A stretch of DNA of 64,000 bases from Lytechinus pictus (taxonomy: Eukaryota), in NCBI RefSeq assembly GCF_037042905.1, contig NC_087245.1, positions 12,092,001-12,156,000 on the forward strand, given 5' to 3'. Every line of letters begins with the position of its first letter. Position 1 is the first letter of the stretch. Below the pieces are notes generated by a model, which saw only the letters and a program-made list of their open reading frames with translations, did not search any database and was not told the origin of the DNA. A program made the translations under genes and the position numbers. Positions 1-54,990 of the stretch are shown here, one piece after another.

Positions 1-1159
1 TGTGAACCCCATTCCTGCATGATTAGAATTTCCCTTTATTTTCTCATATATTTATCTATCAGCCTGAGCTGATTCAATCTTAAGATTCTAGCCTGATCAG
101 TCCACATTGATGTTAATCTTCATTTTTAAGAAAATTCAATCAATCCAAATTGAAAGCCTATAGTCTAGGCGGAGACTGCAGTAATTGTTTTTGCCTTTGC
201 CACAATTTGTATTCTTTGCCGCATCACACGTATTGCTTGCATTCAGCATAACAGTAAAGACAATAACTGCAGCCTTTGACTAGATTATTGGCCACCCAAG
301 TGGAGGAATTCTCACTTGTCGAATGCTCACTTACGGGCCCCATTTATGAAAAGCATGCGCTGGTATTAGGAATATAAAGTATTACCCCGTGTCAAAATCT
401 GAATGCATCTTCACTTCCTGATCAGCTGGAAAAGTCACAAAATAATGCACATTTTGGGGGAAAAATGCAACTCTGCAAGTTGGCTCAGGATTATAGTATT
501 GATATGATTCTCGTGGAATAGCCCTCTTATTGCAATCTCCAATAATCTTGTTTTTTCTGATGTGTTTAGTTGGCCACATTAGAAATGTTGGCTAATTTTG
601 AAATTCTGGCTGGTGTAAACATACCACATTTTGTCAACTTTGGCATAAAACCTTGGTAAACAATGAAGAGGTATTTAAACTAAAGTATGAACTTGGAAAG
701 TAATGAATTTTCTGTCACTATCAAAATCCATTATTTTTATTATTTTTATGTCATTATTAACCGTTGTCATTTTTATCATTATGATTCTCTTATTATTGCT
801 TCTACTATGAAAATGATTATTAGTTATTCCTATCACTATTATATTATTACTTTCAATATAAGCATTTAAATGAGTGGTTTCAATTTCTCCTGATCAGGTT
901 CTATATAACAATTATTGTCATTAATATTATGGAAATATGTTCGTATGCATTTGTATTTAAAAACAAAAGTATAAATCTCATGTATACAGTCTTGATTAAT
1001 TAAAATGTCAGTTTACTATGTCAAAAGGAATACAAAATTTCATGCATTTAATATATTTGTATTCGAAGATACATAAGAAGATACAAGATAGTAAGAGCTT
1101 GAGAGATTGTCACTTGCTTACGAAAGAGAGGTAATGCTGAAAAAGATTATAATGAAGTA

Positions 1160-1445
1160 GTGATGATGTTGTTGTATATGATGGTGATACCGGGGGGGGG
1201 GGTGATGCTTATGGTGGTGATGATAATGGCGATGATGGTGGTAGTGATGCTGATGATTGATGGTGGTGATGATGATGATATATGATGGTGGTGGTGGTGA
1301 TGATGATGATGGTGGTGGTCGTGGTGATGACGGTGATGCTGATGATAATGTGATGATGAAGATGATGACGATGGTAGTGTGATGACGGTAGTGGTGGTGA
1401 TGATGGTGGTGGTGCTGATGACAATGATGCTGATGATGATGCGGT
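1160..1445. repeat. (GAT/GGT)n degenerate microsatellite
   Basis: Read directly from the sequence. Confidence 0.9.
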
Positions 1446-1992
1446 TGTTACATCAGATTCCCTATCATCTAAATCATAATTAGCTTTGTCAAATCCCACC
1501 CTTATGATATGAAAACTCATGTTGCTTACAATCATCTAATAGCAAAGTTTGCAAGCGTGAGAGCAAGTTGCCCACCCCACCCCAAAATCTCAAACTGGCT
1601 GTCATGCGCTCATAGATGGCGCAAATTCAGAATGAGCTAATGGGTGAATTGATGATGGTGAGTAGTATATAGATGTATAATTTCGTTCTTTAGAAACATT
1701 TTGGGGCTGGCCAAAATAAACTGTGCAGGATGAGAACACGAAGGACAATGGAAAAAATAATAAAGAAAAAAAAAATCGTCATTTCATTTTCAAAATTGTT
1801 GAAAAAATAATGTCTCCTTAGCTATCAACTAAAGGCCTATAATTAGATTAATTTTATTTCGGTTCATAATTATAGGTAAGGTCCATCTTAGCAACAGTAT
1901 TCTTCCAACTAGTTAAGAATTTTTATAGAAAGAAGACGATTTGTAAAGCATGTTAATTTATAATCTTGTACTGTAGTCACGATCCCTAAATT

Positions 1993-6728: not shown

Positions 6729-8032
6729 ATTTCCATATTCTAGTTACAAGTGATTTATTTTTCACTATTATGGGGGATCATTTTTTTTCATTCACAAAGA
6801 GCACTAAAAAACTTTAGTTTTTTGCATTTTTTTGTGAAGGCCCTCTATTTGTGGAAAGTAAAATTGCTTCAGAATTGTCAAAAAACATTCTCTATTTGTA
6901 ATTTAGAAAAAATAATTAAAAGAAATTCAATTTACTTCAGAGCCAATTTATAATGATGAATAGTTGTACTGGAAACTGACAGTGTCAAAAAATCAAGCTT
7001 TTGTCCCAAAAATAAGAGAAAATAAGCTAAGCATTGCTCATTTGCACCCTTCTTTTGTGACAGACCACCCACTATACACTAATTTTACGGCCGATTCTTG
7101 AATTGATTCTTGATTCATTAAATGGAGCGATAGGCAGGATCAATGCTCTCTAAACTAATAAACCTTCATGTTAGTTTCTCTCTAATTTAGAATTATGTTG
7201 AAATGGGTGGTACTACATATGATACAAAATATAAATTGATTTCATTTATGACTTTATAAAAAGTAATTGTAATTGTAATTGGCAAAAGTAATTGGTACTT
7301 GTAATTGAAAAAATGTAATTTAATTGAAAAGTAATTGTAATTGAACATAATTTCTTCAATTACGTAATTGTAATTGAAGAAAGTAATTGAGCCCAACCCT
7401 GATTTTTGTCAATAAATAGTGATTAACTCTTCATAACCAACAATATTTTGGTCATAAAACCATTATCAATATTCAATATTTTTTCTTTATTGCATAATTT
7501 GGATAATATTAAAATATTGCCCATATAATATAATTGTTAGATGATAAGATTTTTAAACTTCATTTGCTAGTCTAATTAGGACCAAGAAGCCACTAAAAGT
7601 TGGAATGAATCTGATTTGATGGCTTGCATGTAGAGTTCCTGTTGTAGCATTAGATTGGGAATGAATCATTTGGGGTAAAAAAAAAATTCATGGAGATAAA
7701 GTACTCTGGTTGTAATAATCGACCTGGGGGGGGGGGGCTGTCTCATGGACGTTATTGCCTAAGGAGTAATGGCGCATCAAGGATGGTCAAAATAATAATC
7801 TGTAACAATATAAATTCAAAGGCACCATAAAACTTTCAATGTATTTAAATTTACAAGAACATGTCGATTTAAACTGTTGTTGCCTATTTGAACTGGGAGA
7901 TCACACTTTATAGAAACTCAAATAATAATTCAGTATTCAATGGGTTAAATAAGTCTTTCATTGCTTCTGCTCATTTTTTCATGCATTCACAGTTAGAAGA
8001 CTTCTACATACATCGAAACACATCCATAAATC

Positions 8033-11000
8033 ATGATAGATAAAGATGCTCTCTTCGATGAACTTTCAAAAAGATTCCCAGCTGGGAAGTATACAACTTT
8101 TTGCAATAAAATGGGTGTTGGCTACAATGAAGCAAAGAGCATGCTGACAAGATGTAAAGAGGACTACAACGTAGCATTGAGAGATCTATTAGGTCAATGG
8201 GATGACAGGATGAAGGGTGTTACCAGGAAGCAAATAGAAGATGCTCTCATCCAGGCAGAGGTTGGTGGACTCTGCTCCATTGTGAGAAAATACTACGAAG
8301 GTATGATACTCCATGGTCACATGTCAAATTTATCACTTTTAGTGATCTTATGACATAATCTTGGTACTCGTCCAGCATCACTTTGATGCACTTTTGTGAT
8401 TTAAGCATATAGGCAGGAAAATGCATTGGATATTTGTTTCACTGTTTAGGACAAGATTTCAGTCAAATTGTTATTATATCATATGATTTGGAGTTTTAAA
8501 ATGGTTATTGATATAAAAGGTTTCAGATGTTTTAGAAATTCAGTCTGTTGTGACTGGTTGCATTTGACAGCAAACTTCTCATTTGGTGACTATTTATCTT
8601 ATTTCACCACACAAACAACATGAATTACCTGAAACTGCAATGTGGAACAATATTTCTTGTGCTGCATCATCTTTTCATAAGACTTGTATGTTCCCTGTGA
8701 TAACGATCAAAACCAACAAGATGATTAAAGTAGAAAGTCATACGTGTATGTGATCTCTATTTCTTTTAACAGCTGACACTAGAGTTGAAGCTGCCTCAGA
8801 CTTCGGAGCTGGAGATGCTACTGTTCAGAGCACTAGCAGTCAGCGTATGAACCAATCGGAGAGAATGGTTCATATGAATCAAAGAGGTAATATAAGTCAA
8901 CTCTGCTTGTTCACAAAATGTGAAACAATATCTATAGTCTGGCACCGTATTTTTGAAGGGGTGTCATCTTGGTGGCACATCAATTTGTCTCTTAGATTTT
9001 GAGGTTTTCATGTAATTACTTAAATGCCTTGGAAAAAAATGTATTTTTTCTAAAACTTTTAATGTAACTTAATAGTTATATTATAGTTACTTGAACTAGT
9101 GCATAATATCATGAGGGTCTTAGGCATAACTGAAAGGTTAGCAATTAATCCTATGCTTGATTTTCACAATTAATTGTACATTGTAGTCAATCGTAAAAAA
9201 AAGACATTGTACGATGATTGCTAAGCTTTGTGTCACCGGCCCCAGATAATTATTCCTAAGACTGAGATCATATAATGTGAATAAAGCAGGTGAAAATGAT
9301 GAAATACTGAAAATGTAGAATTACAAGAACAGTTAAAATAAGGAAAACAAATACAGAATGACAAGGGTGACTAATCCACATCTAATTATGTTTCATCTTT
9401 CAGGTGTGCCAAATACATCTGCTGCTACAGGGGAGACTGAAGCCATTGCCAGTGTAGACATACGTAAACCTGCCAGACAGCAAATTGAAAAGGAGCAGGC
9501 AGAGAGGAAAAATGGTATAAAAATGATGTCGATTATTTTTGTATTCTTCAAGAGAATACTTTTTACAGCTAATTATTATTATTGAATTATCAAATGAATT
9601 TCTAAGGGTGGTTCATTTCAGGACCAACATTATACCCACAAAAGAATACATGGTGTACCGTGAAACTAATACACTCTGATCCTCAAACGTTTAAGTTTTA
9701 TTGGGACTCTTGGGCAGATGTGCATTGAAAATGTATATACTGGCATTTCCATAAAAGTGTAAATGTTAAACACCTTAATTAAACACCTAATATATTACAC
9801 CTTTCTGAAATGATTTTGCTCTAATTTTATATTTAGAGCATATGAAAGTTGTATGTTTTTCAAATTATGGCATGGTAGGTCATGGAGATGAATGGGGCTC
9901 TGGCATACAAATACATATAGTAGGATTATAGGATAGATAATATCATGGCATTGCCCTTTGATGTGTGGTGAGAATATGTATTTTCAGCTGTGGATCAAAG
10001 GAAATATAAGAACAAATTTAATTACATTTCGCCATTTGGCAAGTAAAAGGGTAATGTGACACTATCAATTGAAAAAAAAAAATGATACCAGTCTAAACTG
10101 CTGTTTCTACAGCTTATATCCCTGCAGTTTTCTTTGTAGAATAAGGGCATGCTTGATATTGCCCTTCATTTAGCCAAAATTGGAAATTCTTCATTTATTA
10201 TTGAATTTCTAGAAAAATATGTTGATTATGATCAATATAAAGACATTACCAGAAAGAGCTTTTAGTACTCTATTAGAAAAAAAAAATTTATGGAAAAACT
10301 AAATGTTTTTTACCCTTTTACTTGCTGAACAATGATTTGTACAGTGCGTCCCACAAAAAACGAAACCGAGATTTAGCGATGATTTATCATAACTTAATCA
10401 TAAATACAATAAACAAATGACCCACCAACGTAAAGCTTAGAATCTCCTCTTTCATCTGATACTACAAAGATTATTCCTCATTCACGCATGAGTGAGCAAA
10501 AACAATTCGAAGAAAGGATGCCAAAAACTCATTTGGCGGGGGGTATCTGAATTTCAAAAAGAAAGTCACATGACTAAAAAGTTCAATATCTGCTCTTTTA
10601 TTTGATACCTTAATCACAGAAAATGGTCAAGAAGTAAAAAAGGTATGATCCCTCGAAACAATGCTTGTATTTCCATAATTTCATTAAATAAACTTGTTTT
10701 CACCGGTTTCCCACAGAAAGCTATCGCACATGGCTGATCGTCAACAAAACGGAATGTTGAGTGAGTTTAAACGCTAGCTTGTAAACCTCTTCATTTCATG
10801 AAATTATTGAAAATCAAGCCTTGTTTCAAATAATCAGAACTTTCTTATTTCTTGACCATTTTCTTTAATTGAGGTATCAAATTAAAGAGCAGATATTGAA
10901 CTTTTTGAAAATGTGGTTTTCTTTTTGAAACCCAGATACAGCCCGCCAAGTGACTTTTTGGTATCCCCTTTTCAAATTGTTTTTGCTCACTCATGCGTGG

Positions 11001-14000
11001 ATGAGAAATAATTTCAGATGATAGAGGATATTCTAAGCTTTAAAATGGTAGGTCATTTGTCTATTGTATTTGTGATTAAGTTATGATAAATCATCGATAA
11101 ATCTCGGTTTCGTTTTTTGTGGGACGCACTGTATAGCGCCAAATCAATTCATGAAAATCTTCAAGATACTGATAAAAAAGAAGATACACAAGAGGAAGCA
11201 GTAGAAGACTCATTAAAATCTTTCTCTTTTTCTATGTTTCTTTAAGCATTATTGTAATTTTATTCATGTTTATTTTTTTGAGCCAGGTTGTTTGGTTCTG
11301 ACTTCTGACACTTTAATTTTCACCCAAATCAATATTCTATGATACTTTTACAAATTATACAGTCAAAAATGTTGCATCAGATGCTGCTGTAGATGCTGCT
11401 GTAGATGATGATGAAGATGATGATGATGTTATCAGAGGAGGAGGGGATGGTTCAAGTATGCAGACAGAGCAGGTGACAGTAGTCAGGCAAAGAATAAGAG
11501 GTAAACAGACATACCAACCGTTCTCTTTTTAAAGTATTTGTTCCTCTTTTTGGCTATGAGTAAACCAATACTTTTTTGTATTATTTGTTACTTTTTTTTT
11601 AAATTTCTGATCATGGATTATGTATTATACACTGCGCGTGACACTAGCGCCGGTCCAACAGTCCCTGACAAGTAAAGATCACTGTCGGGCCAGTAACTTG
11701 TTGCATGAAAAAACAAGTAAATTCTAGCCCAAGAGCACATGTTTAAAAGGGTGAATTATCAAGTTTTCAAGTAGAGTCATTTCACATGTTTTTTCCCCGA
11801 TCTCACTACAACAGGCTGGCGATTGTTATGTTGAGCCAAATTTAAAAAAATACTTTTTTTTTCTTCTAAGAATACTTTTTTTGGTTGTAGAAGGTTGGCA
11901 GGTCTGGGTAAATCATTTTTATCACTTGTTTTAACTGACTAATGATATGAATGGTTAATGATCAACACTTCAATACAATATGATGCACCCATGACCCATT
12001 GCTATGAGCTTTAACCATTTCAGCATTGTTGTTGATGTTGATGGGGGAGGGGTTAAAATAAATTTCAAACAATTAATGAAAGGCAAAATTTCCACAATTA
12101 TATGTTGAAGCTCACTTCCTTGTGGGCCTGAAATATAACGGTGATAGTATTCATAGATACATCATTATATTTCTTTTCTTGCAATAATCAAACAATGCAA
12201 TTTTGCTGGAATGACTTTGAACCAAGAGTACATATTGATTCAAGATGAAATGTATGTATTGAGTATGAATTACTTTATGGAATTGATATGCATTCATTCA
12301 ATACCTGGGTTCCGTTGCAGAAAGAGTTGCGTTTAAACGCAAGTCAAAAAATCAATCGCAAGTCCCAAATGTGCGCTGTTGATTGGTTGCAACTTTCTGC
12401 AACGAGCCCAAGAAGTCATTGCCTTGTCAGACTATTATTTCGAATTACAATGCTGCAATGTCTCAGTTCTCCCCCCCTAAAAAAAAAAAAACCAAACAAA
12501 CAAATATCAAGCAAACAAAAAGAAATATCCTTAAACCTCTAAAGCTACAAGTAATTCAGATGATTAAAGAGCCCTATGTTTGAGGAAAGATTTCTGTCAA
12601 TTTATTTGACTCAGTTGAATGATTTCAATGGTCTTACTACCAGGTGAGGAAGACAGAAAACAAGAAATACAGCCAGTCGAGGTGATGGACTCAAATCATG
12701 GAACAGTAAATATCACTGGAGATAGACAAAGAGGTAAAATAATACCATTTTAATACAAGAAGGGGAAGGAAAAGATGAGAATAAGTAGAGATAAAAAAAA
12801 AGAAGGGGGAGGTTGAGAAGTTGAATGAAAAACATAAGAGAACAGAAGTCATGCTTTAATAGACCATGTAAGGGAGTAATATTCTGCTAAAATTATTCTG
12901 GACTAATTCTATATAATACTGCAATAGGGACGACTTATTAAGGAATGAGTAAATGTTTGTATCTTGAATTAAAGAGGTACTCCAGGCTGAAAATTGTATG
13001 GCTTGAACAGATAAAGAATTTTTAGACAAAGAAAATACTGCAAATTTGATCAAAATCGGACAAAGAATGACAAAAATATGACAATTAAAATATTTGCATT
13101 ATTTCGGTGAAACTGTTCTATGCATGTCTCATGAATATTCAATGATCAAATTGTTTATGTCCTATCCCTACTTGGTATTTTATTGTTCAAAATTATGTTT
13201 ATTAAGATTTTGTCCAAGAATTAAAAATACATGTATTGGATTGATTTAGTGCATGAGATATTCATTGCTGCAATTTATGTCACTTTAATGAAGACATATC
13301 ATACACACATGTATGAACATATGAAATAATTATGATTTTATATAACATAAGAAAAAAGGAAAGTAGGGACAAGGTATCATCAGCCCACCTACATATAATG
13401 AATAGTTATTATGAGGTGCGTATAACTGTTTTCACAAATTATTGCTTAACTTAAAAATTTAATAGCTTTTTTATCTGTAATAAGTTTTTGTATTGCCTAC
13501 ATAGCAGAGCGAGACTAAAGGCGGCGGCAGCGTCAACATCAAATCTTAACCTAAGGTTAAGTTTTTGAAATGACATCATAACTTAGAAAGTATATGGACC
13601 TAGCTCATGAAACTTGGACATAAGGGTAATCATGTATTACTGAACATCCTGCCTTGTTTTCGGGTCACATGACCTAGGCCAAATGTCATTTAGGGTCAAT
13701 AAACTTAGACCATGTTGGGTTAATCAGTATCGAAATCTTAACCTAAGGTTAAGTTTTTAAAATGTCATCATAACTTAGAAAGTATATGAACCTAGTTCAT
13801 GAAACTTACTCATATGGGTAATGAAGTATTACTGAACATCCTGCCCGAGTTTCAGGTCACATGACCAAGGTCAAAGGTCATTTAGGGTCAATGAACTTTG
13901 GGCATGTTAGGGGTATTTGTTGAATTTCGATCGTAACTTTAAATTTTTATGGAGCTAGTTCATTAAACTTGGACATAAGAATAATCACGTATCACTATTA

Positions 14001-16695
14001 AACATCCTGTGTGAGTTTCAGGTCACATGACCAAGGTCAAAGGTCATTTATGGCAAATGAACTTTGGTCATGTTGGGAGTATTTGTCGAATTGGCGTGAT
14101 AACTTAGAAAGTTTCTGGATCTAGTTCACGAAACATAGACATAAGGGTAATCAAGTATAAATTATTGCTTTGCACACATTTTAGATCACATGATCATGGT
14201 CAAAGGTCATTTTTGGTGAATGGACATATTTTTTTAATTTATCATATGTTTTCTTTTGTGAATAATTATACAATAATATAGCTGTCTTCAAAGTCAGCAC
14301 TTCTGCTATATCGAATCAAGTAATGCAGGCGAGACTGCCAGAGGCGTTCCACTTGTTTATTACATTTTCAGCATTTTGCTCAGCGAATTTTACTCCTTTT
14401 ATTTAGATATTATTATTTTCAGCCCAGAGTACCCCTTTAATCCAGAAAAAGCAGTAAAAAAAAATATAGAAAAGAAAGAATAGGAAGGAGGGAGGTATTT
14501 GTTCGAGTGAATCCACTTTACTTTTCCAGTCATGTCAAATATGATGTGTATCAGTGTTTACTCACCGCAAGGATAACATAATTCATGTTGGCTTGATATC
14601 ACTTTATTGAAATCACAGTAAAGGAAATAAATTTACAAAGTCAATACAAAGCATAATAAAGATTAAGATAGGTCCAGGTCATGATCGATGCATTACTGTC
14701 TATGCAGGGCAGTACTATAAAACTTCATGTACAGTTTCGATGTAAGTAACAGGTGCATAACTTAATCATATAACATATCTTAAAAATGACTATGTGAAAT
14801 GATAAAGAACAGCCAAAAGTTAGGGTAAATATAAGAAAAGGGGAGAAAAAGAAATATACATACACATACAAACATATTTATACTAAGTTTACAAATATTA
14901 GGTTGGGGCCAATCTCCAAAGCGTAGGCAAATATCAGGAATAATTCCGACCATAATATTAAATCTGATAGGCCTACCATTAAAATAAAAATTATGGATAA
15001 TGAACAAACTGTATACCATGTCATCAATGTCAATATAATGTCTAAACTTCAACATGTACATTATAGACTTAGAAAGAAGAAAGGGAAAGCAATAGAAAAG
15101 AAAGAAGGAAAGAGAAAGGAATGGAGATGGAACAAATAGAGAAAAGAGGGGGAATAGAAAAAGGAAAGAAATTGGGAGAAGAGAGAGAGAGAGAGAGAGA
15201 AGGGGAGATAGGGAGAGGGGAGAAGGAGAGAGAGAGATCGAAAATAGTAAACAATATGAGTTATTGCTCCAAAAGATTGGAATACCCCAGATGGATTCAT
15301 CCTTTGCACAATATATTAAGAAAGATGAAACAACCGTAATTTTACTCAAATTATCTCCAATATTGAAGGTTAGTAAACTGTAGGAGGTAACTAAATTTTT
15401 GGTACTTTTGAAATATTTGTACCAAATTAATCAGCTATTTAAAAGTGGACAAAATTGGTCTTTACAGTTCCCAATTCATTAAAAAATGGGCAAAGTAACA
15501 CAGTTCTGGTTCACTTTTGGTCTGAAGTTGTCGAAAACAGAAATCGGATACCAAATTACATGAAGAAAACGGTAAATTCGGAAGTTATTGAACAGGTCAG
15601 TAAGGTGAAGCACAGAGGGATGATGAGCTCGTTGACTGTGTGACGTCATTACTCTCGACTGTTTTCTAGTGCGCGATTGTCGGTCTGGGGGCGGCTGGGG
15701 GCTGAGAAGGGTCTCTAATAATTTCATTTCTTGCATTTCAACGACATCTATAAGACTTTTTAGTGACATATTTGTGTATAAAAAGACAAGACCTTTCCAT
15801 CCATTTATAATTTGTCTATAATCATCACTTTCGTGAATTTTCTTCGTGTGTGTACTGTAAGTCAACCTCTAAGAGCTAAGTGAACATATATGCATGTTCT
15901 TTTTGTAATTTCAGTTTCTATCTTTTTTTATTTAAGACTTACAATTTATAATTATATACAAAATTTAATTGATATGAAATTATCATGGGATTTGTCTTAG
16001 TTACAACCTTTGTTAACTCTTGGTATTGTCAATATCCATATTTATATGACACCTAGATAGATCCTTGTGATTTGATTGGTTGTTTGATATCGTTCATTCA
16101 ACCCATTTTGTAATGACGTCATAAACCGTGCAATTTTGGATCCATTCATCGTGCAATTTTGGATCCATACGATTTTGTCCATTGCACGCGTGCACCGAGA
16201 CTGCAGCAGGCACCAGCAGTGCGCATGTTGTAATGACGTAACAATCAACAGACCGAACTCGCACTGCTTGAGCGTGTTTTGCATCGAAATTCATAAATTT
16301 CATTTAAAAAAAAAATCAATTTTTAGGTGTCATATAAACCAAATAATGAATGTTTCTTCATTCATGCAATGGACAGATTAATTAATTCGGTGAAAGATGA
16401 AATAATGATCCATTCAACTCGGCTACGCCTCGTTGAATGAATCATTTCATCTTTCACCTCATAAAGTATTCTGTCCATTGCACTCATAAACATTCATTAT
16501 TTGTATATTACCCACTTATAAGGAGGAGACCCAACATCAAATATCAAAGTGGAGAGAATCACAGAGACGAAGGATGGGGACAAATCAAGAACAACGGTTA
16601 TCTGGACAGATGTCAGCAAAGAACAGATGGCCTTTCTAGGAATAGTCTTGTGTGTCGGTATTGGATTATTCTTCTACAGCCGGCGCAAGCATTGA
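8033..16695 (+). CDS. Death-domain protein with C-terminal tail anchor (MAVS-like architecture), about 297 aa. Coding exons 8033-8300, 8773-8886, 9404-9514, 11363-11500, 12644-12733, 16523-16695; possible extra cassette exon 15468-15599
   Basis: ATG 8033 has an in-frame TAA just upstream and A at -3. The first coding exon translates as a death-domain pattern (LFDELSKRF..YTTFCNKMGV..ALRDLLGQW..TRKQIEDALIQAEVGGLCSIV). All junctions are GT-AG and phase 1, and the joined 894 nt read open to TGA. The last exon encodes ...KEQMAFLGIVLCVGIGLFFYSRRKH*. Confidence 0.8.
10342..11131. mobile_element. Tc1/mariner-type foldback element
   Basis: TA|CAGTGCGTCCCACAAAAAACGAAACCGAGATTT ... AAATCTCGGTTTCGTTTTTTGTGGGACGCACTG|TA, with inverted arms of roughly 300 bp. 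Confidence 0.85.
12969..14440. mobile_element. TTAA-flanked element (Kolobok-like, family B) interrupted by a Helentron-like insertion
   Basis: TTAA AGAGGTACTCCAGGCTGAAAA ... TTTTCAGCCCAGAGTACCCCT TTAA. A related copy lies at about 61741-62312. Confidence 0.75.
13485..14357 (+). mobile_element. Helentron-associated (HINE/DINE-1-like) element with about 120-bp internal tandem repeats
   Basis: T-rich start, repeated GGTCACATGACCAAGGTCAAAGGTCA units, and a 3' end GCAGGCGAGACTGCCAGAGGCGTTCCACTTGTT. No TSD; second copy in opposite orientation at 38641-39465. The superfamily assignment is inferred from structure. Confidence 0.65.
16040..16505. repeat. Double-hairpin (palindromic) interspersed element directly upstream of the tail-anchor exon
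   Basis: TTTATATGACACCTA / TAGGTGTCATATAAA inverted pair, then a roughly 160-bp hairpin AAATAATGAATGTTT..TGCAATGGACAG..GGTGAAAGATGAAAT / ATTTCATCTTTCACC..CTGTCCATTGCA..AAACATTCATTATTT. Confidence 0.7.
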
Positions 16696-17065
16696 TAAAG
16701 GATTTTACTTTGGGTAATTCATTTCATAATTTCTCAGTCCACTATTAAGGTTTTGTAATGTCAGCACTATACACTATCACTTTATTTCCTGTATTAACTT
16801 CTTATACTACAGTACTACTTCTACCAAAATGTTGTGAACTTGTATTATATGGTAATATAAGGTTTTTTTTTCGTATGATTCATAGTGCCAATGATTCTAT
16901 ATACATGCACATTCCATGCCTTTGTATTGTGACATCATGAAGATTATAGAGGTATGCAGTTCACCATGTGAATACTGGATAGCAGTGCCTTGAGCACGTA
17001 ATCCATACGGGTTTGCTGCTTTATTGGGATGGTAAAATGAAGAGATGTTGATTGGATGAATAGAG

Positions 17066-17805
17066 CATGGACCTATTAGAGATGGACATTCAATGCTATC
17101 ATTTTCTTTGATCGAACGAGATCCGCCGCCTAGTGATTATGTGCATCTTAATGAGAACATTCAGGTGTTTGACAATCTTATAGCGACATCAAGGCGTATC
17201 TGATTATTTACAAAGACACAGCTTTCCTAGTTTTGGCTTTGTTGGCTGATGCCCTGTGTTAGAAAATGTTTTTCAATCAACATGCTTTAGTTTTGAAGCA
17301 GCAAAATTGAGAAGCAGACGATTTTGTGACATAATGTGTAATTATTTGATCCATGCACTTCCACACTTACATAATGACCTCAATAACATTAAGAGATAAA
17401 TGTTCTCTACAAGATGTGAGCCATGTATCTCTAGAATATTACGAAGAAAATCAGAAAAATGGGATTATAAGTAATAGACATTTAATCACAATATGGCCTA
17501 TATCTTACAATATGCATACATTTTCCCAAATAAAACACATGGAACTAAGATTGCCAAAGGTAAACCAGAACTGCACATCAATTTTCCAGGATTTAAGTGA
17601 TTTATCATCTTCTGCGCATACAGTTTGGTCAATATCAATGTCTAATCACGAACTGCTTCTTTCAACTCACGACCTAATTGACGGCAGAACACGATAGGAT
17701 AAAAGTACAAAAATATGAAGATAATGTTATTCAGAGTACAATGACAGTCAGATGTTAGTGAATTCATTAACTATGCGATGAGTGTCCATCTCTAATAGGT
17801 CCATG
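17066..17805. mobile_element. TIR element with CATG termini (P-element-like, non-autonomous) downstream of the death-domain gene stop
   Basis: CATGGACCTATTAGAGATGGACA ... TGTCCATCTCTAATAGGTCCATG (23-bp perfect TIR). Flanks AATAGAG / ATTAGAG. Confidence 0.7.
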
Positions 17806-22701: not shown

Positions 22702-25700
22702 TCATGGCCCTTGAGTTATTTTAGGTGGTCTTCGGTAATGTTTATAAGCTGGAACAAGGGTTATAATGGAGAGAACAGACAGTCCACCTAAATACACGAA
22801 CATCATCTCATAACCAAGAACGGAAGCTATCCAACCTAAAAGAGGAGAACAAAAATGGAAACCTTAAAAGTTAAAGTTCAAATTAAACGTATAATTGTAA
22901 TGATTGCAAACACATTAAGATTCACTAATTGGCTCAAATAAAGTAATACAACGGCTGCAACATTTTATGGATTTTTTTTACGGTCTTCCAACAAAGTTTA
23001 TTATGTCATTGTAATAATATAATTATCATTAGCCATTGAACAAGACTACCTTGCATTAACAGTATCAAATAAATATCTAAATTGTACATTTTCAGCTATG
23101 CCTATACCAGTCGTGGATCCAGGCGCGAAGGGTAGGGGCGTGCCAATTCGTTTTCATTTAAATTGTTAATCATAGTTTTTGAGAAATGGTAACCGATTTT
23201 TTATGAAGACTTTGCAGGTATTTTTTTTTTGGGGGGAGGGGTGTTCGCTCCAGCGATTATCTCCTTTTTGGGCAAGACAACGAAAATCCCCTTTTTATAT
23301 ACTTGTCCAAATTATATATTTGCAAATAAAAATGGATTATTTTCATGCTCCCTTCCGGCCTCATCAAATCCTCGATTCACTCTTGTAAACTTTCTGAATT
23401 GTCTTTAAATAGCTGAATAGTAACATGTTAATACACATTGATACCTTAAATATTATTTTTTAAAGAAAAAAAAGAAACGGTAGACTTCTCTTGAGTCTCA
23501 GCTCCAAAGAGAGAAAAAAAATATTCTAGAGAGAGCTTGGCATGTTAAAAAATTAAACTGAATAAAAATGTTTTTGCATTAATTTTTTTTTTAATTAAGT
23601 AGGGCCTACTCACGCAAGTAGCGCCATCATTCGTCAGGTTCAGAAATAAAGTAGAATTGACGTTAACTTTCTTTTTTATTTACACAAAAAAAAATAAAGG
23701 TTGGAACACCGTATGGATTGGGGTTAAAAAGTTGATGATATATATATCACTTTTTTCTCCCTCTCGTCTATCATTTTAAGGTCTTCAAAATGCCCCCCCC
23801 CCTCCTCGCAACAGGTATATCAGTTATTGCATAACAAGTTATTTACCTGCTGCAAATCCACCAATGGGTTCGGAAAAGCCATAGGCTACACTGGACAAAC
23901 CATATGACGTCGAAAGTCTTGGAGATGGTGTATAATCCTATGATAATGAAAACAAACAAACATAAAACATATTGTTACAAACTATTCTTTACCATTATCC
24001 ATATATATTTCTAAACGTCAGTGTGTCAATACCTGTAATGTTTAAATTGAGCAAACAATTATACCAAGTAAATGATCAAACCAATTTTACCTGTACATTC
24101 TAAGAAAATCCTTAAAATCAACTTAAATCTTAGATTGTTTACTAAAGTGATAGGGGTCCCGATAAAGATTAACGCAATGAAATATAAGCATCTAACAAGA
24201 AAAAGCATCATACCCAAACATGTTGGCATTTATAAAAGGCGCAAAAAGTACGTTTAATTGCGGCAACTGCCGTCGCAGCATTACTGGTGTACCAGGACAT
24301 TACGGTCTTATTACAACACAAATCTAAAAAGCGATTTATCTTAGGTCTGCATTGATCATCGTATAAAAATAATTGTACTATCAATCGCTAAGCTTTGTGT
24401 AATACCAGACGTTAAGGATTAAAAGCGCAAACACTTCATCATACTTCCAGCATAATGTTCATATCAAACATTTTACAATCTAACATTGTACTATTTAGCA
24501 TCCGAATACCACTTAAGTGTTTATTATTTTTATGATATCGGATCCTTCGAGCATTGACCTTGTTTAATCCATGACAGGTTTTGTGATCTGTGTGTCCGTC
24601 AAGAATAACTTGTATATTATAAATTTTAAAGCGTAACGTTTTGAAACTGTATAAAGTATCATGGAATTGTCCTTTTCATTTAGCCCGGGAGGGGGGGGGG
24701 GGGGCAGTCAAATATATTGCTGTACACATGCGTGACCAAAAAAAAAAAAACGCGTTTAAAGGGGTGTTTTGTTTCAGTTTTGGAAGCGGGCCGCGCGTGA
24801 ACTCGTTAAGAGTATCAAAAACACCGATTTTCAAGAAAAAAAGGGTGGTTTTGAAAGACAGGTCAGGGTATTTTTTTTCCAAAGCTTTTTTTTTTAAAGA
24901 CGAGCCAAACGTGTTTAAGGTATTTTTTTCCCAAAGCTTTTCCCCGAGGTCATATTCTGGCGACAACTTGTTAAGGGGCCAAATTGTATAAATAAAGCCC
25001 GCGAAAAACTTGTTAAGGGGGTTCTTTTGCACACAGAGAAAAAAAACTCGTTTAGGGGGTGTTTGGAAATAATTTGGTCACGCATGTATACAGCAATACA
25101 TTTGACTCCCCCCGGGTCATTTAGAATCAGTTGATCGATATATTTCATTAATAATTAGTAATTTTCACAATATGCACAGAGACTGAATTGTGCGGGGCCG
25201 ACTTTTTCATTTTAGTATATGTCCTCGAACTTCCCATATTACCGACAGTGGGGAAATTTCACTGCGATTTACGGAAGGGGGGAATAACAAAGTAAATGTA
25301 TTAAAAATGCTCGTCAAATGACAAAAATAGCTGGGAGGACTTTGTCGAAATTGGTGATCCGGAACAGCAGTTTTGTCATAAGTTTCGGAGTTGACAAAAA
25401 TATGTCGTTTGTCCAGAAATGGACGAAACTGCTGTTTTGATGCACCAATTTTCGACAAAGACCTCGTTATTTTTTTGTCATTAGGGCATTTTGCAATACA
25501 TTTTATCTGTTCTTGAACCAACCATTATGTCCGTACGTCAATATCTGACATAAAGATCGCTTTACCTTGAGCATAATCGATAAAAGAGATGTCTGAGTGC
25601 CGAAAAAAATACCATTCAAGACAGTTCCGGTGGCTAACCAACCAAAGCCTTTCAGGAGAGGATCACAGAAGAAGAGTATACTGTTCAATCCGGCTGAGAA

Positions 25701-28700
25701 CATAAAGAGGCCAACAGAAGTCATCCAGCGATTATGAACAATAGGACCCTGTGAGAATCTCCCAAAGGCATCACCAACCCCAGAGACGAGAGACAGAAGA
25801 ACTGCTTGGGAGAGGGTGATGCCTTTAGCAACGGCATGGGAGATTAGGAAGATGTTCCAAGACGTCGTGATCATACCGAATATGAATGTAGCAAGATAGA
25901 TATAGATGAGGTAAGGCTCGTCCCGACATAGCGACCAGTCAAGAGCACTCCAGATCATTCGGAAAGGTGTCAGGCAAAAGTCTATCACATAGCACCCCTT
26001 TGCCATGTTTGGTTGTTGATCTTCCAGATGAACTCTAAGAGCTTCATCATGGAAGTCTTCTAGGCAATCTTTCAAAGGTGGACAAGCTACTTTGAATGCT
26101 CCCCTTGTGTTATCAACCTGATTACATCCAGATGACGTTGATAATTTCTGGAAGGAAGCATCATCACCATTTAGACGACGCTCATTTCTTGTGATACTGC
26201 GATCCAAGGGGAGGAGAGTGTCTTCGTTAAGCTCGACAAGTTCACGGTCACCCATCTCGTCTTCTCGCACGTTGGTATAGGACTCATCTTTGGCTCTTCG
26301 TTTCGGGAGTGTCCGAGGGTCTCTTAACAACGCAGTGAAGACGATCGTGTTAAAGGCAATCCCTCCAAGTATAAGAATTGTTCCTCGACATCCGTAATGT
26401 TCAAGAATCTTTTCTGTAAGTAACGGTAAGATCACACTAACTGCACAGCCCATGTCACCCATTCCAAAAGCAAGGGCAAAACGCCTGGTGAAGTAGAGAC
26501 TGAATACAATGAACGTCAAGAGAGAGATTATTGAAAATCCGACACCTAGAGCGACATTGAAAGGGACGAAAATATAGAGAAAACAGGGATTAAGCAGGTT
26601 TTTCTATTCTCCCTGGCAATATTGGTTTTTCTTTTAATAGTATTCAGATGAGTTAATTTTAAATCATCAAGAATCTAATAATTTAATTGAACAAATGAAC
26701 AGAGAAAAATGAAACAATTTAACTGAAATGTTAATAAAAGTACAAAGTTATGTAATTTCAAAACTTCCCTATTTGTTCACAAAACAGTCTCATCTTACGT
26801 ACTACACAACACAGTGAAATGCGAACGAGAAAGTCGATGATGCAATTCACTCGCAATTTCTTTTGTATTTTACTTACATTTTTGGGGGCAAATTTGAGAA
26901 TACAGAGATTCTTTAAAAAGTCACAATAGGTTACAACAATTGCAATTAAGATTAATACATGTCATATTTCTGAATAAAATACCCCCCCCCCAAAAAAAAA
27001 AAAAAAAAAAAAAAAAATAGCGATCGGTTTCCCACATTTGCATTGGATCTCTTGTGCAGCTAGACTAAAAATAACAGTGTCTTCGAGATTTAGTTGTATC
27101 ATGAACGTGTGTTTGGCGATTTTTTTTTTTTTTTTGGGGGGGTACGTGTTTAACGGAGTGAACAGACGACCTATTTTTTTTTCTTTTTAAGTTAAAGTCC
27201 AGGGGTAATTATGTAGAGTTAAACGACCCCAACCTGTTTTTATACTCTCTTTTTCTCTGTTCTTTTTTCCCTATTTTACTTCTTTTTCTCATATTTCCCC
27301 TTTTTTCTTTACCCCTTGAAAACTGATAGGGGACAGTCGCCCACCTGTAACATTGAAGTAACGCTGTGCTCACTTTTAAGCTAAAATCCCCTCCTCTGGC
27401 ACTGCCATTAAAGGAACATTCATTAGAGTGCACTGACAGAGCATTTATTTTAATCAAATCAGATTATCAACGCTACTATATGCTGCACTCCAATAATCCA
27501 ACAGATAATTAAAAAAATCAAATTTTGTGATCGATTTTGACATAATATTCAGAAAATAATATCATCTTTTCACCATTTTCTCTTACCTTTCCCTTTCTTT
27601 TTTTCTTGGTCGTAAATTTTTTTTTAGAGGGGGGGGGGGGGCAAGCCCCAACTGTACGCCTCTGATTATTAGCAAGTAACTATATGCTTTTTAACACTAA
27701 ATAATAATAATAATAAATGTGGGCTTATAGCCCCTTGCCCTCGTGGATTTTGCTATTATCGATGATGTATTCTATTGTATTTACCTGATGCGACCATTGC
27801 AACTGAGAACCAGGCGATGTTTGTTGAAAGTGATGAGAGAGATAGACTGAGGCCCATTATGAAGCTACCAAACACCATCAATGGTCTTATTAAAGTCTTA
27901 TTCTTGGTGAGAGGAGAGATGATAGGAGCTGACGAATCAAATAAGGGATCAAAATAATAGGATTAGTAATATATAATGCACAAAGAAATAAGTATTTCTG
28001 GTGACGCTACACGCAGGCCAAATACGCCAAATATGACTGCATGTTTATAGCGAGATTCGCTAAATGATATTCATAATTCGGAAAAGTGACATACGTAAAT
28101 AGAAGTGCATGTATGTAGAATTTATTTCCTGGCCGGGTATTTATATACGTCTTATAAGACATATCAATTTGTATAAAGTTTTTGAAAAATTTTCAGCAAA
28201 CATGTGAGTTTCCTCAATTTCGGGGGGGGGGGGGGGCTGCATACAGCCATGCAAATGTATCGTTTCCATGATTGTTGTAAATAGTGCTTTAAAATTCTCC
28301 GATCTTAGATAGATACTAGTATTTGCAAAAAAAATGGAATAACACGTTTCCTGTGCGATAATTTCTACCATCAAGACATTGTATGCCTTGAATTCATTTT
28401 TCAATTATAGGAGTTTTATTTGCTTTGAGTAATCTTTGCTCTTAAGCTAATAACTCACGAGCACCTAAGTTCATTGCCACCAATATGTTTCTAAATGGAT
28501 TGTTTGCGTATGAAATATTCAAATGCTTAATATAAATTTGTCATCGTATAAGCTATAAAATTCGAAGGAGGATCCCCCAGAAAAAAAACGAAGGGGGAAA
28601 TATTCACCGGAGATCACCGCCTATGCACATTCCCTATTCCCATGCCGAGGGCGGATGCAAGATTTTAGAGGACGGGGAGGGTGAAAACCGATGGTTTCAT

Positions 28701-35763: not shown

Positions 35764-38700
35764 TAATAATAATAATAAGTAGGGCCTATGATAATAATAA
35801 CAAAAATATATCAATTATTTCTTCTTGAGCTTTAGGGGATGTGAAGTTTGTCTTGCGTCTCAGGTAACTGCTTAGACCATCGTCATCTACCCTTAGCAGT
35901 TCCATAAGGTGATGAAAATTCCCATCAACTTCCGTGTGTCCTCTGAAAGCAAGACCTTGGCGGAGGAGAAACCTAAGAGCGCTGACTATCCTCAGAAGTG
36001 AATGTCTCGCTTCCTCTTGTTGTCGCTGACATTCGACACTAAGATGAGCTCCAATGGATGGCTTGTTGGATGCTTGTAGCTGTGACATGGCAAACCGATG
36101 ACATTCAGAGGACTGGTGGCTCTCAAACCTTTGGGTGGCCTTTTTCCAATTACTGAAACCTGTGTCGATGAATGCAAACTCTTTCACTTTTACGAGATGA
36201 AGAAGGCAATTTCTTTCATCTTTGGAGCAGTCGAAGCATAAAACATCTGCCGTTCCTTCATCGTAATGCAGCCATGGATAAGTCTAAAACCATTTTGCTT
36301 GGAAATAGACTTTTTGGTTTTCCGTTCTTTTGGGATGTTGGTACATGCTGGATGATTTGGCTTGTCATGATGAAGATGCAAGACATTCACAATCACAGGT
36401 TTGTTGACACTTTGTTGGTCTTGCTGGTCATGTTGGTCGCTGCTAGGTTCGGAGGTTGAGGCTTCTTCTTTACTGGCAGTTGTAGACTCATTTGAGACAT
36501 TTTCTGTCACATCTTCCTGTGGATTCTCTTCATCTCTTCTCCTGAAGAAAGACGATATTTAGCTCAATTTACGTCGTTTTGAACCGGACTGGGACATGAT
36601 GCCAAAACTATATTCCCTATTACGAGTTGTCAAGTTTAATGAAATCAAACTAACATACATGCATTACATCAAACTCATTACAACAGCCTCGCGCGGTAAA
36701 ACTGAACATACACCACGTATGATCGGAATGCGAATACGCGTGTAAACTACATTTTTTTACATTTTGTTAAGCGGTATTTTAGGAAGAATTTTCACCAATA
36801 AAACAATTATCTCTTGTGATTTTTTTTTCATTTCTTTCGTAGTGGGGGGGGGGGGATGTTTGTACAGGCCATCCCCCCTCCTCGAAAAGTGGGGGGGGGG
36901 GGGATATATCCCCCCATCCCCCCATAGGCGGCGGAAGCGGGGGGGGCGTGTCCCCCCAAAAAAATTTTAGGTGGGGGGACGAACCCCCCCTTAATTTGTT
37001 GTTGATTACCTTTTTTTTTTTTTTTTTTTTTGCTTGTCAATTTTTTTTTCTGCGTCCCCCCTAAAATTTTTGGTTGATAACCTTTTTTTTTTTTTTTTTT
37101 TTGCTTGTCAACAAAAATTTGTGGTCCCCCCTAAAAAAAATTTTCCGCCACCAATGATCCCCCCGGGATTTACGCCAGTGGTATATGTCCCCCTGAAAAA
37201 TGCATTCTGCAGTTCTGGGGAGCGTTTCATGGAAGGACTTGTCGGACGTTTCATCCAACAAGTCCTGCTTAATCTGGCAGTTACAATAGGAACTATGCTT
37301 CTTAGCCAATCAAAATCAAAGAAAGTTGTGAGATCTGACAGCTTGTCAGACGAAAAGTGTTGATGAAATGCTCCTCTTGCGATCGCTTCCTCGGATTTCA
37401 GATCTACCCTAGATCACTAATCATTTTTTCAGTAACTATACAAAATAACAGAAACATGAAAATTACCATCAAATTGTGTTTTTCATACAATTTCACCCCC
37501 AAAATGAAAAAAAAAATGTCCTGCGACCCCTGCTTTAGAGATCCATAACGGTGCTTGTATATAGATACACCGTAGTGTGGGTCTTTTTTTTGGGGGGGGG
37601 GGATGGAGGTACTATAATCATGCCTCTGTGTGTATTTTATTTCTATAAAAAATCACTTTCTATTGAACGATTTCCGTTAATTGAATTTACGATATCTCTT
37701 CTAACAGATGCAGCTACTTCAGTCTGTGAAACGGTAAGCTATGCCTATGGCGAGTCTTGCTATTTCTTTATGAGCACATCTGCCAACTATAAAGAAGCAG
37801 CAGCGGAGTGTGAGAGCACTTGGAACGCACATCTTGTTTTTATAGAAAGTGAGGAGGAACAACAATTTCTGGTATCACAGATTCTTCTGTTAGACAACCA
37901 GGCTGACTTCTGGATAGGTATAGTTAAAGGCCAAGTCCACCACTGTCCACCCCAACAAAAAGTTGATTTGAATAAAACAAGAAAAATCCAACGATCATAA
38001 CACTGAAAATTTCATCAAAATCAGATGTGAAATAAGAAAGTTATGATATTTTGAAGTTTTGCTTAAATCTCACAAAACAGTTTTATGCACATCCTGGTTG
38101 GTATGCAGTTGAGATGATTGATGACGTCACCCACTCACTATTTCTTTTGTATTTTACTATATGGAATATGAACTATTCTATTTTTCTCCTCATTGTCCTG
38201 GGAAACAAGGTTTTGTCCCTCCCTGAACATGAATAAGTACCATCGTTTTAAATGTTATGGCTCCGCCAAGTTGGTCCTTATTGTCACATCACTAAAAATG
38301 AAATATTGTATAATTCAAGCAATAAAAAAAACAAAAGAAATAGTGAGTGACATCTTCGACTCTCATTTGCATATCACTGAGAGTTGCATATATAACTGTT
38401 TTGTGAAAAAATAAGCGAAACTTTAAAATGTCACCACTTCCTTATTTTGCGTCTGATTTTCATGAAATTTTCAGTGTTATGCTTGTTTCATTTTTCTCTA
38501 TTTATTCAAATTAACATTTTTTTTGTGGTGGACTTGACCTTTAAGAAGTATTTCGTTAATCAAATATCTACGATATTACTGATCTGCGGCTGATAATTTT
38601 CTGCCAAAGACATTTTGTTTCTTTTTATAATAAAATTATGAACAAGTGGAGTGCCTCTGGCAGTCTCACCTGCATCACGCGATTCAATATAGCAGCAGTG

Positions 38701-54731: not shown

Positions 54732-54990
54732 CTGCAGAGTATAATAGAGAAAGAGGGGAAGATGGAGAGAGAGGGGATAGAGAGAGAGATTGGTTATTTC
54801 TAAAATAGTCATTTTCAGGCGCCCGCCAATCAAAGGAGTTCGGACATGACTAGGAAGTGTTGGGGAAGCAATTGTGTAATTTCTGGGCACAATTGCATAA
54901 AAAAAATACTATCGTAATTAACTTTGCCATCCAAAGGTGTGTTTTGTGTTTCCGTTGGTACCATACTATGCCTTGAGGTTGGTACCTTAC

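Follow-up and report, generated by a model that had tools for sequence, protein, structure and literature searches.

A spliced, expressed gene of six coding exons

The window analysed here is a stretch of 64,000 nucleotides of the Lytechinus pictus genome (contig NC_087245.1, positions 12,092,001 to 12,156,000), and between window positions 8033 and 16695 its plus strand carries LOC129257497, a gene whose splice sites and translation give six coding exons, with GT-AG borders throughout and phase 1 at every junction (Table 1). The joined coding sequence (894 nt) encodes 297 aa and matches exactly, over its full length, the RefSeq protein XP_054751809.2, which is labelled 'uncharacterized protein LOC129257497 isoform X2 [Lytechinus pictus]'. 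This match, together with the transcript contig described below, bears out the phase-compatible, six-exon model of about 297 aa that was proposed in a first-pass annotation of the same DNA. The 'uncharacterised' label predicted there is indeed the one in use, but the gene is not hidden from annotation, contrary to what was stated there. The protein has no N-terminal extension because an in-frame TAA (8027-8029) sits immediately before the ATG, and a further upstream, non-coding exon is implied by the acceptor that precedes the 5' UTR together with 33 unaligned leading letters of the transcript contig. Isoform X1 (291 aa), shorter by six residues, would result from an alternative acceptor located 18 nt into exon 4 (~11381).

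Table 1. Features of LOC129257497 in window coordinates
Feature	Position	Strand	Evidence or remark
5' UTR of first coding exon	7993..8032	+	cag acceptor 7990-7992; transcript contig begins at 7991
Coding exon 1: ATG and entire death domain, residues 1-89	8033..8300	+	GT donor at 8301, phase 1
Exon 2: linker residues 90-127	8773..8886	+	Spliced CDS, transcript contig
Exon 3: linker residues 128-164	9404..9514	+	Spliced CDS, contig pieces
Exon 4: acidic linker with Asp/Glu run	11363..11500	+	Spliced CDS, transcript contig
Exon 5: linker residues 211-240, PVEVMD motif	12644..12733	+	Spliced CDS, raw junction reads
Exon 6: juxtamembrane segment, hydrophobic helix, basic tail RRKH	16523..16695	+	Spliced CDS, raw junction reads
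TGA stop in exon 6	16693-16695	+	CDS translation
3' UTR, minimum extent (reach of transcript contig)	16696..17148	+	Contig of run X1

All six exons are covered by a 1422-nt transcript contig (run X1), the pieces of which align at 7991-8298, 8771-8884, 9402-9513, 11362-11498 and 16521-17148; the 90-nt stretch between the last two has no listed alignment piece and equals exon 5 in length. A second contig (run X3) shows the same joints, including 8298>8771, so that this first junction is seen in two contigs, and no raw read crosses it among those listed for runs X21 and X22. Raw depth over the exons was low in these two runs (~0.6-7x), and raw reads span the joints 11498>12642 (three in X21, six in X22) and 12731>16521 (seven and one, respectively). 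The first mate of the junction-crossing reads always lies on the minus strand, which corresponds to plus-strand RNA in most stranded libraries. That is, the RNA joins the death-domain exon to the segment 16523-16695, and LOC129257497 is confirmed as a real, spliced and expressed gene.

Death domain, linker and C-terminal helix

The protein consists of a death domain (DD; residues 1-89), a linker (90-274), and a hydrophobic window followed by a short tail. Death domains are six-helix antiparallel bundles of ~80-90 residues, and the AF2 model of the N-terminal segment, built on a 29-sequence alignment (pLDDT 94.1), has six helices (4-14, 17-26, 31-40, 45-59, 65-74 and 78-88). In a VIA-align comparison of this model with 48,161 chains, ranks 1-7 were all DDs (Z 12.7-9.9) and the best other death folds scored 9.7 (CARD), 9.2 (DED) and 8.2 (PYD), on a scale where helical bundles give a high background Z. 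The top Foldseek ranks were DDs throughout (TM 0.62-0.80), with the DDs of FADD, ankyrin, PIDD and RIPK1 as the best fold matches. Searched against the sequences of solved structures in the PDB, the family profile matched DDs only, FADD first (E 9e-4) and then PIDD, THO1 and TNFR1, and matched no CARD. Pfam PF00531 (Death) was matched by 19 of the 29 aligned relatives (best 3.3e-8), the 89-residue domain on its own having no Pfam match at E<=10. Predicted fold and profile together identify the N-terminal segment as a genuine DD, not a CARD, DED or PYD, in agreement with the death domain of roughly 89 aa that the first-pass annotation had read from the letters.

The linker is polar and acidic over ~185 aa, also as first described, and its sequence is poorly conserved; it holds 37 acidic, 25 basic and four proline residues, and proline makes up 1.7% of the whole protein. 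The motif in exon 5 has the form PxExxD, which we take to be a TRAF6-binding-type consensus; it is present in three of seven family members, missing in S. purpuratus LOC100893710 and altered in LOC105439378. Besides the DD, no effector domain is recognisable in the protein.

A tail anchor is defined by one transmembrane helix within ~30 residues of the C-terminus and by the absence of any other hydrophobic segment or signal peptide. Across the 297 aa, the Kyte-Doolittle 19-residue mean exceeds 1.6 only for windows starting at 273-276, which leaves a single hydrophobic window (residues 273-294, mean 1.93); the helix within it (276-292/293, 17-18 residues) lies 4-5 residues from the stop codon, with the tail SRRKH after it. 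A signal peptide is absent, the N-terminus being the DD. The C-terminus therefore fits the definition at the level of sequence, and the predicted combination of one hydrophobic helix and a basic tail is kept in L. variegatus and S. purpuratus. With only five residues between the helix and the stop codon, and no signal peptide, insertion would be post-translational, with the DD and linker in the cytosol, an orientation also suggested by the cytosolic nature of DDs. The helix carries a conserved G-xxx-C-xxx-G spacing and follows a conserved juxtamembrane segment (residues 241-273), encoded in exon 6; a hairpin ahead of the helix in the full-length structure model is only a hint, the model being unreliable (pLDDT 36.8).

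Relatives in echinoids and among known adaptors

A family search of 1.84 billion representatives gave 36 matches with E<=1e-3, and the tail-anchored family was found, in the searches run, only in Lytechinus and Strongylocentrotus; so far, this type of tail-anchored DD protein is restricted to echinoids. It is single-copy in the L. pictus genome, where the next DD is 36% identical to its own. Comparison with S. purpuratus LOC100893710 gave 70/89 identical residues in the DD (78%), 22/29 in the juxtamembrane segment (76%) and 12/19 in the helix, with RRK retained, vs. 15/38, 13/36 and 20/37 (36-54%) in the linker exons; the much higher conservation of the DD and the juxtamembrane segment suggests that both ends are under purifying selection. 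Residues S246, R252, T254-T256, G259, T264, T265 and W268, among others, are invariant in seven family members. The S. purpuratus paralogues differ by loss of whole exons, one of them ending before the helix, and exon-loss and fusion variants are many in that species, including a DD joined to transposon-like sequence. The same DD subfamily also occurs in adaptor-type layouts (DD+CARD, ZU5+DD, COR+DD and tandem DD).

NLRs that begin with a death domain number in the hundreds in sea urchins, and in four NACHT (NLR) proteins of S. purpuratus the DD is 75-81% identical to that of LOC129257497; in two of these NLR models (P0009 and P0010), exon 2 is also fused between the DD and the NACHT. Death-NACHT-LRR is a described layout of urchin NLRs (PMC2858798), from which LOC129257497 differs in being without a NACHT and in ending in a membrane helix. 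In L. pictus, 13 loci are 69-72% identical to that S. purpuratus NACHT exon, and a different DD exon precedes them in two of the three upstream regions examined; a receptor with a matching DD was not found in its genome. Since no other L. pictus DD exceeds 36% identity and the NLR counterparts use another DD, the proposed sensor partner would be absent or different in this species. Hence, the earlier suggestion of nucleation by DD-bearing receptors retains its link to matching DD-NACHT proteins in S. purpuratus and loses it in L. pictus.

Among known systems, the best fold and profile matches are the bipartite DD adaptors FADD, RAIDD/CRADD and PIDD, which are soluble and have a second death-fold domain where LOC129257497 has a membrane anchor; the S. 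purpuratus protein LOC100892318 (DD+CARD) has a same-subfamily DD that is 31% identical. CARD19 (BinCARD) is similarly a small protein with a cytosol-facing N-terminal death-fold domain and a membrane helix. It sits in the mitochondrial outer membrane, and according to PMC8997538 no CARD proteins other than MAVS and CARD19 are known to be integral to mitochondrial membranes. However, its domain is a CARD (Z 8.4 against the DD model, vs. 12.7 for DDs), its helix is more central, and its distal C-terminus (aa 147-183) is needed for targeting, so that it is not a classical tail anchor.

Possible functions of a tail-anchored death domain

Our leading reading, which we hold tentatively and at a little less than an even chance, is that LOC129257497 serves as a membrane-tethered DD scaffold of echinoids. 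Under this hypothesis, the protein would be inserted post-translationally into an organelle membrane (mitochondrial outer membrane or peroxisome, or ER) and its DD would assemble homotypically with same-subfamily DDs of cytosolic sensors or adaptors, e.g., the DD-NACHT proteins of S. purpuratus. Its role in signalling would be an activating one, the assembly concentrating a signalling complex on the membrane by the logic that leads from RLRs to MAVS, with a DD in place of the CARD; lateral clustering may be aided by the small-residue spacing of the helix and by the conserved segment next to the membrane. As a conserved protein with a predicted membrane anchor and a DD shared with a subset of the urchin NLRs, LOC129257497 is a concrete, testable candidate for the missing next step after them. 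If the scaffold hypothesis is true, death folds tethered to an organelle by a tail anchor would have evolved repeatedly, using a CARD in MAVS and a DD in LOC129257497. No published description of a tail-anchored DD layout was found in our literature searches. A more elaborate version, which we regard as speculative and improbable, is an echinoid MAVS/ASC-like relay built independently from DDs, in which oligomerised DD-NACHT sensors would template the polymerisation of the near-identical (75-81% in S. purpuratus), organelle-anchored DD, and the juxtamembrane strand-turn-strand and the G-xxx-C-xxx-G helix would cluster as a signalling hub or a membrane-perturbing death effector. Matched NLR/effector pairs in fungi offer a parallel to such sensor-adaptor matching through one shared exon.

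Alternatively, LOC129257497 might be a membrane-tethered decoy, i.e., a regulator with a DD alone that would hold DD-bearing sensors or adaptors on a membrane and dampen signalling, which we consider unlikely. The model is that of primate CARD-only and PYD-only proteins, which arose recently as copies of a domain from a sensor or caspase, and the close identity between its DD and those at the N-termini of S. purpuratus NLRs is the pattern expected of a recently shared exon; the lack of a recognisable effector domain, and paralogues that shed whole exons or stop before the helix, are consistent with it as well. A simple decoy, however, would not need the C-terminal module and RRK tail that are conserved across two genera, L. 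pictus has no close parent DD to be mimicked, and in the DD tree the tail-anchored DDs are not nested within the NLR DDs, on a weakly supported split (71/92) that does not fix the branch order.

It is also possible, with a similarly low likelihood in our view, that the protein resides in the ER or nuclear envelope, is inserted by GET/TRC40 and acts in the control of ER stress or cell death rather than as a mitochondrial platform. The four orthologues have a helix GRAVY of 2.2-2.6 and a tail with three basic and no acidic residues. For mammalian tail-anchored proteins, Costello et al. (PMC5450235) call a GRAVY of 2.4 'highly hydrophobic' and show that a strongly hydrophobic helix can outweigh a charged tail and direct the protein to the ER. 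Against an ER address are the conservation of the three basic residues right after the helix, the tail charge near +2.9 that directed an ACBD5 construct to mitochondria (PMC5450235), and the three basic tail residues of MAVS, described as needed for mitochondrial and peroxisomal targeting, which is abolished when the three Arg are changed to alanine (PMC13032619). The values for LOC129257497 appear to lie between the ER and the mitochondrial/peroxisomal regimes and would fit the ER equally; that is, the sequence does not decide for the 'mitochondrial-type' anchor of the first-pass annotation. Even if it acts as a decoy or resides in the ER, it would be the sole tail-anchored DD layout found in the searches made.

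Much less probable is that the gene is a chimera, young and specific to its lineage, put together by exon shuffling and with no selected function: phase 1 at all junctions would permit free exon shuffling, S. purpuratus has the exon-loss and transposon-like fusion variants mentioned above, and the family is narrow, but the gene is spliced, expressed and single-copy in L. pictus, and its two ends have been conserved between genera far better than its linker.

Finally, MAVS has an N-terminal CARD (of the CARD_2 type), nucleated by the CARDs of RLRs, and a proline-rich linker with TRAF-binding motifs. LOC129257497 has the same order of parts (N-terminal death-fold domain, long disordered linker, C-terminal helix, three basic residues), and the evidence supports an analogy that is confined to layout; the part of the earlier reading that made it a possible divergent relative is not supported. 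Orthology or divergent kinship with MAVS is very hard to sustain, since no sequence relationship was detected, MAVS-CARD entries reach only Z 7.2-7.8 against the DD model (vs. 12.7 for DDs), the linker is acidic and proline-poor, L. pictus has a separate CARD_2 and Pro-rich protein (LOC129272581, 8.6% Pro) ~39 kb from an RLR exon, and MAVS was identified in S. purpuratus by Hibino et al. 2006, according to Mukherjee et al. (PMC3879448). MAVS homology is contradicted at the domain level, the domain being a DD rather than a CARD. The CARD_2 exons of the L. pictus genome lie elsewhere, on two other contigs (C12 and C1).

Gene model and death domain of LOC129257497

The window covers C1:12092001-12156000 of Lytechinus pictus. 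The six coding exons of LOC129257497, with GT-AG introns throughout and phase 1 at every junction, join into an 894-nt coding sequence whose 297-residue translation matches exactly XP_054751809.2 (labeled "uncharacterized protein LOC129257497 isoform X2"). Hence, the splice model of the first-pass annotation holds, as does its expectation that automated annotation would leave the product uncharacterized; that is, the gene is annotated but without a name. The reading frame is shut upstream by an in-frame TAA 3 bases 5' of the ATG. RefSeq isoform X1 (291 aa) is six residues shorter where exon 4 begins and, by our reading of the sequence, would arise from an alternative acceptor 18 nt into this exon (skipped: window positions 11363-11380).

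Features of the window, with the evidence for each
Feature	Window positions	Strand	Evidence
Simple repeat, TGA/TGG-type	1118-1535		Period 3, ~80 copies
Coding exon 1	8033-8300	+	GT-AG introns, phase 1 junctions
Coding exon 2	8773-8886	+	GT-AG introns, phase 1 junctions
Coding exon 3	9404-9514	+	GT-AG introns, phase 1 junctions
Coding exon 4	11363-11500	+	GT-AG introns, phase 1 junctions
Coding exon 5	12644-12733	+	GT-AG introns, phase 1 junctions
Tandem repeat, intron 5	13519-14520		Period 166-192
Coding exon 6	16523-16695	+	Acceptor AG, phase 1 junction; stop codon
366-aa open frame	25506-26603	-	No Pfam match
C-type lectin exons	37539-37997 and 41177-41497	+	Pfam
PAN domain exon	44392-44718	+	Pfam
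MFS transporter exon	54414-54908	-	MFS_1, 2e-15
Reverse-transcriptase fragment	60084-60977	-	Pfam

For RNA evidence, four public runs were aligned to the window, and raw reads were taken from two L. pictus RNA-seq runs. A 1422-nt transcript contig of run X1 covers 7991-8298, 8771-8884, 9402-9513, 11362-11498, then 90 nt (the length of exon 5), and 16521-17148, joining the death-domain (DD) exon to the terminal exon as had been proposed. A second contig, from run X3, has identical joints. Raw reads in the two RNA-seq runs span 11498>12642 (3 and 6) and 12731>16521 (7 and 1), all with the first mate on the minus strand, which in most stranded libraries denotes a plus-strand mRNA. Exon depth is low (~1-7x), and among the raw reads listed none crosses the first junction. 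Since 33 letters of the X1 contig precede position 7991 and a cag acceptor lies at 7990-7992, there is probably one additional non-coding exon 5' of coding exon 1.

The 89-residue DD exon alone gave no Pfam match, and 19 of 29 aligned family members match PF00531 (Death; best 3.3e-8). The profile of this 29-member alignment, searched against all PDB sequences, returned the FADD DD first (E 9e-4), followed by the DDs of PIDD, THO1, TNFR1 and ankyrin, and no CARD, PYD or DED region. AlphaFold2 modeled a six-helix bundle from the family alignment (pLDDT 94.1), for which the top Foldseek ranks were all DDs (TM 0.62-0.80, with E-values of ~0.15 because the domain is so short). An exhaustive VIA-align search over 48,161 chains placed DDs at ranks 1-7 (Z 12.7-9.9), with best non-DD scores of 9.7 (CARD), 9.2 (DED) and 8.2 (PYD), and with Z of 7.8 and 7.2 for two entries containing the MAVS CARD. 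Taken together, profile, model and fold searches show the N-terminus to be a death domain proper, which answers the earlier question of DD vs. CARD vs. DED.

Tail anchor and membrane destination

The translation has the proposed layout of DD, polar/acidic linker, one hydrophobic helix and basic tail: the linker (residues 90-274) contains 37 Asp/Glu, 25 Lys/Arg and just 4 Pro, and RRKH and the stop codon come after the single hydrophobic segment (276-292/293). Having no signal peptide and a helix at its very C-terminus, the product fits the definition of a tail-anchored protein, presumably with its DD facing the cytosol; the absent signal peptide and the basic tail would also rule out a GPI signal at the hydrophobic end. 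Over seven family members, the juxtamembrane segment has nine invariant residues, and a G-xxx-C-xxx-G spacing kept in the helix is read directly from their alignment. A word-based search with residues 225-297 matched two Lytechinus proteins only. Exon 5 carries, in three of the seven members, a PxExxD motif, a weak candidate for a TRAF6 site.

The only Pfam match of the C-terminal exon, to PrgI, was sub-threshold (E 0.042) and dismissed as chance; a full-length AlphaFold2 model with seven relatives reached a pLDDT of 36.8, making its strand-turn-strand at 246-271 untrustworthy; and ESM Atlas look-alikes of residues 200-297 provided no usable feature match, all structural rows being below TM 0.5.

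As for the destination, the first-pass annotation called the anchor mitochondrial-type. The three basic residues of the tail do resemble those of MAVS, where changing three Arg to alanine abolishes both mitochondrial and peroxisomal targeting (PMC13032619). However, the helix GRAVY of the tail-anchored orthologues is 2.2-2.6, a range that equally allows the ER, and a value of 2.4 is termed highly hydrophobic in a passage of Costello et al. on mammalian tail-anchored proteins (PMC5450235), where strong hydrophobicity is shown to be able to outweigh a charged tail and direct the protein to the ER. With a MAVS-like tail but a high GRAVY, mitochondria/peroxisome and ER appear, by sequence, about equally probable.

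Possible role, relatives and the MAVS question

We tentatively favor, with somewhat less than even confidence, a membrane-tethered scaffold whose DD would assemble, at the surface of an organelle, with the DDs that cytosolic sensors or adaptors carry, working like MAVS without belonging to the MAVS family. The suggested link to DD-bearing NLRs was found in S. purpuratus, where four NACHT proteins (P0008, P0009, P0010, P0012) have a first-exon DD 75-81% identical to that of LOC129257497 and two of the four also contain its type of exon 2, but not in L. pictus. In the latter, contig C6 has 13 loci with 69-72% identity to the NACHT exon of these S. purpuratus NLRs; the LOC129257497-type DD exon was absent from the 1.5 kb upstream of six NLR loci, and the 10 kb upstream of three contained a different, canonical DD exon in two cases and nothing in the third. 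Either the DD was captured by exon shuffling in the Strongylocentrotus lineage, which the uniform phase 1 would make frame-compatible, or neighboring genes were merged in the S. purpuratus models. A tree of the DDs, built from 89 columns and 21 rows with P0016 excluded as too partial, left 10 of 18 inner branches open, split tail-anchored from NLR copies weakly (71/92), and does not give the order of the copies.

More broadly, the DD family is narrow (36 proteins at E<=1e-3 among 1.84 billion representatives, the named ones all Lytechinus or Strongylocentrotus), and the C-terminal part is matched by tail-anchored members only. LOC129257497 is single-copy in L. pictus, and the next DD in the genome (36% identical) stands at the C-terminus of a ZU5-like protein. 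Subfamily layouts include DD+CARD, ZU5+DD, COR-A/COR-B+DD and tandem DD; for instance, S. purpuratus LOC100892318 (P0019, 332 aa) has a DD of the subfamily (31% identity) and, C-terminal to it, a CARD (PF00619, 1e-14), the parts of RAIDD-type adaptors in reverse order.

The same layout read as a tethered decoy, in the style of CARD-only or PYD-only proteins, is unlikely. An ER-resident role is improbable to a similar degree, although location is partly independent of the scaffold and decoy readings. Between L. pictus and the S. purpuratus orthologue LOC100893710 (tail NRRKN, RRK kept), identical residues number 70/89 in the DD, 15/38, 13/36 and 20/37 in exons 2, 3 and 4, 22/29 in the juxtamembrane segment and 12/19 in the helix. 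These regional identities suggest that selection acts on both ends of the protein and not on the linker. The L. variegatus orthologue (292 aa) has an identical tail; S. purpuratus paralogues have single exons missing, an altered tail, or end before the helix. Next to this pattern, a chimera selected for nothing has only a slight chance.

LOC129257497 is not MAVS and resembles it by layout alone. Because its domain is a DD and not a CARD, its linker is acidic and not proline-rich, no profile or fold evidence (PDB profile search; VIA-align, 48,161 chains) connects the domain with the MAVS CARD, and L. pictus has CARD_2 genes of its own, the proposed divergent relative of MAVS gives way to an analogue in layout, and true MAVS homology is the faintest of the readings considered. 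On contig C1, a CARD_2 exon and, 11 kb downstream of it on the same strand, a RIG-I C-terminal-domain exon mark one of these genes as an RLR. The other CARD_2 exon (C12:23086931-23087083, minus strand) is part of LOC129272581, whose 522-aa product starts with the CARD_2 and has a long disordered region rich in Pro/Ser. This locus is ~39 kb from another RLR exon (RIG-I C-terminal domain), which is on the opposite strand. No hydrophobic helix is present in the retrieved isoforms of LOC129272581 or of the 556-aa orthologue from L. variegatus (best 19-residue means 1.04 and 0.88). LOC129272581 is a candidate for a MAVS-like adaptor of the CARD type, apparently with no tail anchor. In S. purpuratus, MAVS was identified by Hibino et al. 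2006, according to a passage of Mukherjee et al. (PMC3879448).

Full-text literature searches found no description of the locus names or of tail-anchored death-domain proteins. The death-fold proteins named as integral to the mitochondrial membrane in a passage of PMC8997538, MAVS and CARD19, are both of the CARD type; next to these, a classically tail-anchored protein with a DD is a new version, so far restricted to echinoids.

Other features of the window

The 64-kb window contains no further death-fold or NLR gene. On the minus strand, the long TGA/TGG-type repeat reads as open frames rich in His and in Ser/Pro; it is low-complexity sequence, with no gene by any evidence seen. Finally, no other part of the window comes close in RNA depth to the intron 5 tandem repeat (124-139x, first mate on the minus strand, vs. 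~1-7x on the LOC129257497 exons), where 61 and 86 reads jump back from 13908 to 13541; either a strand-specific and abundant transcript of the repeat or longer arrays at other genomic sites would account for this signal.
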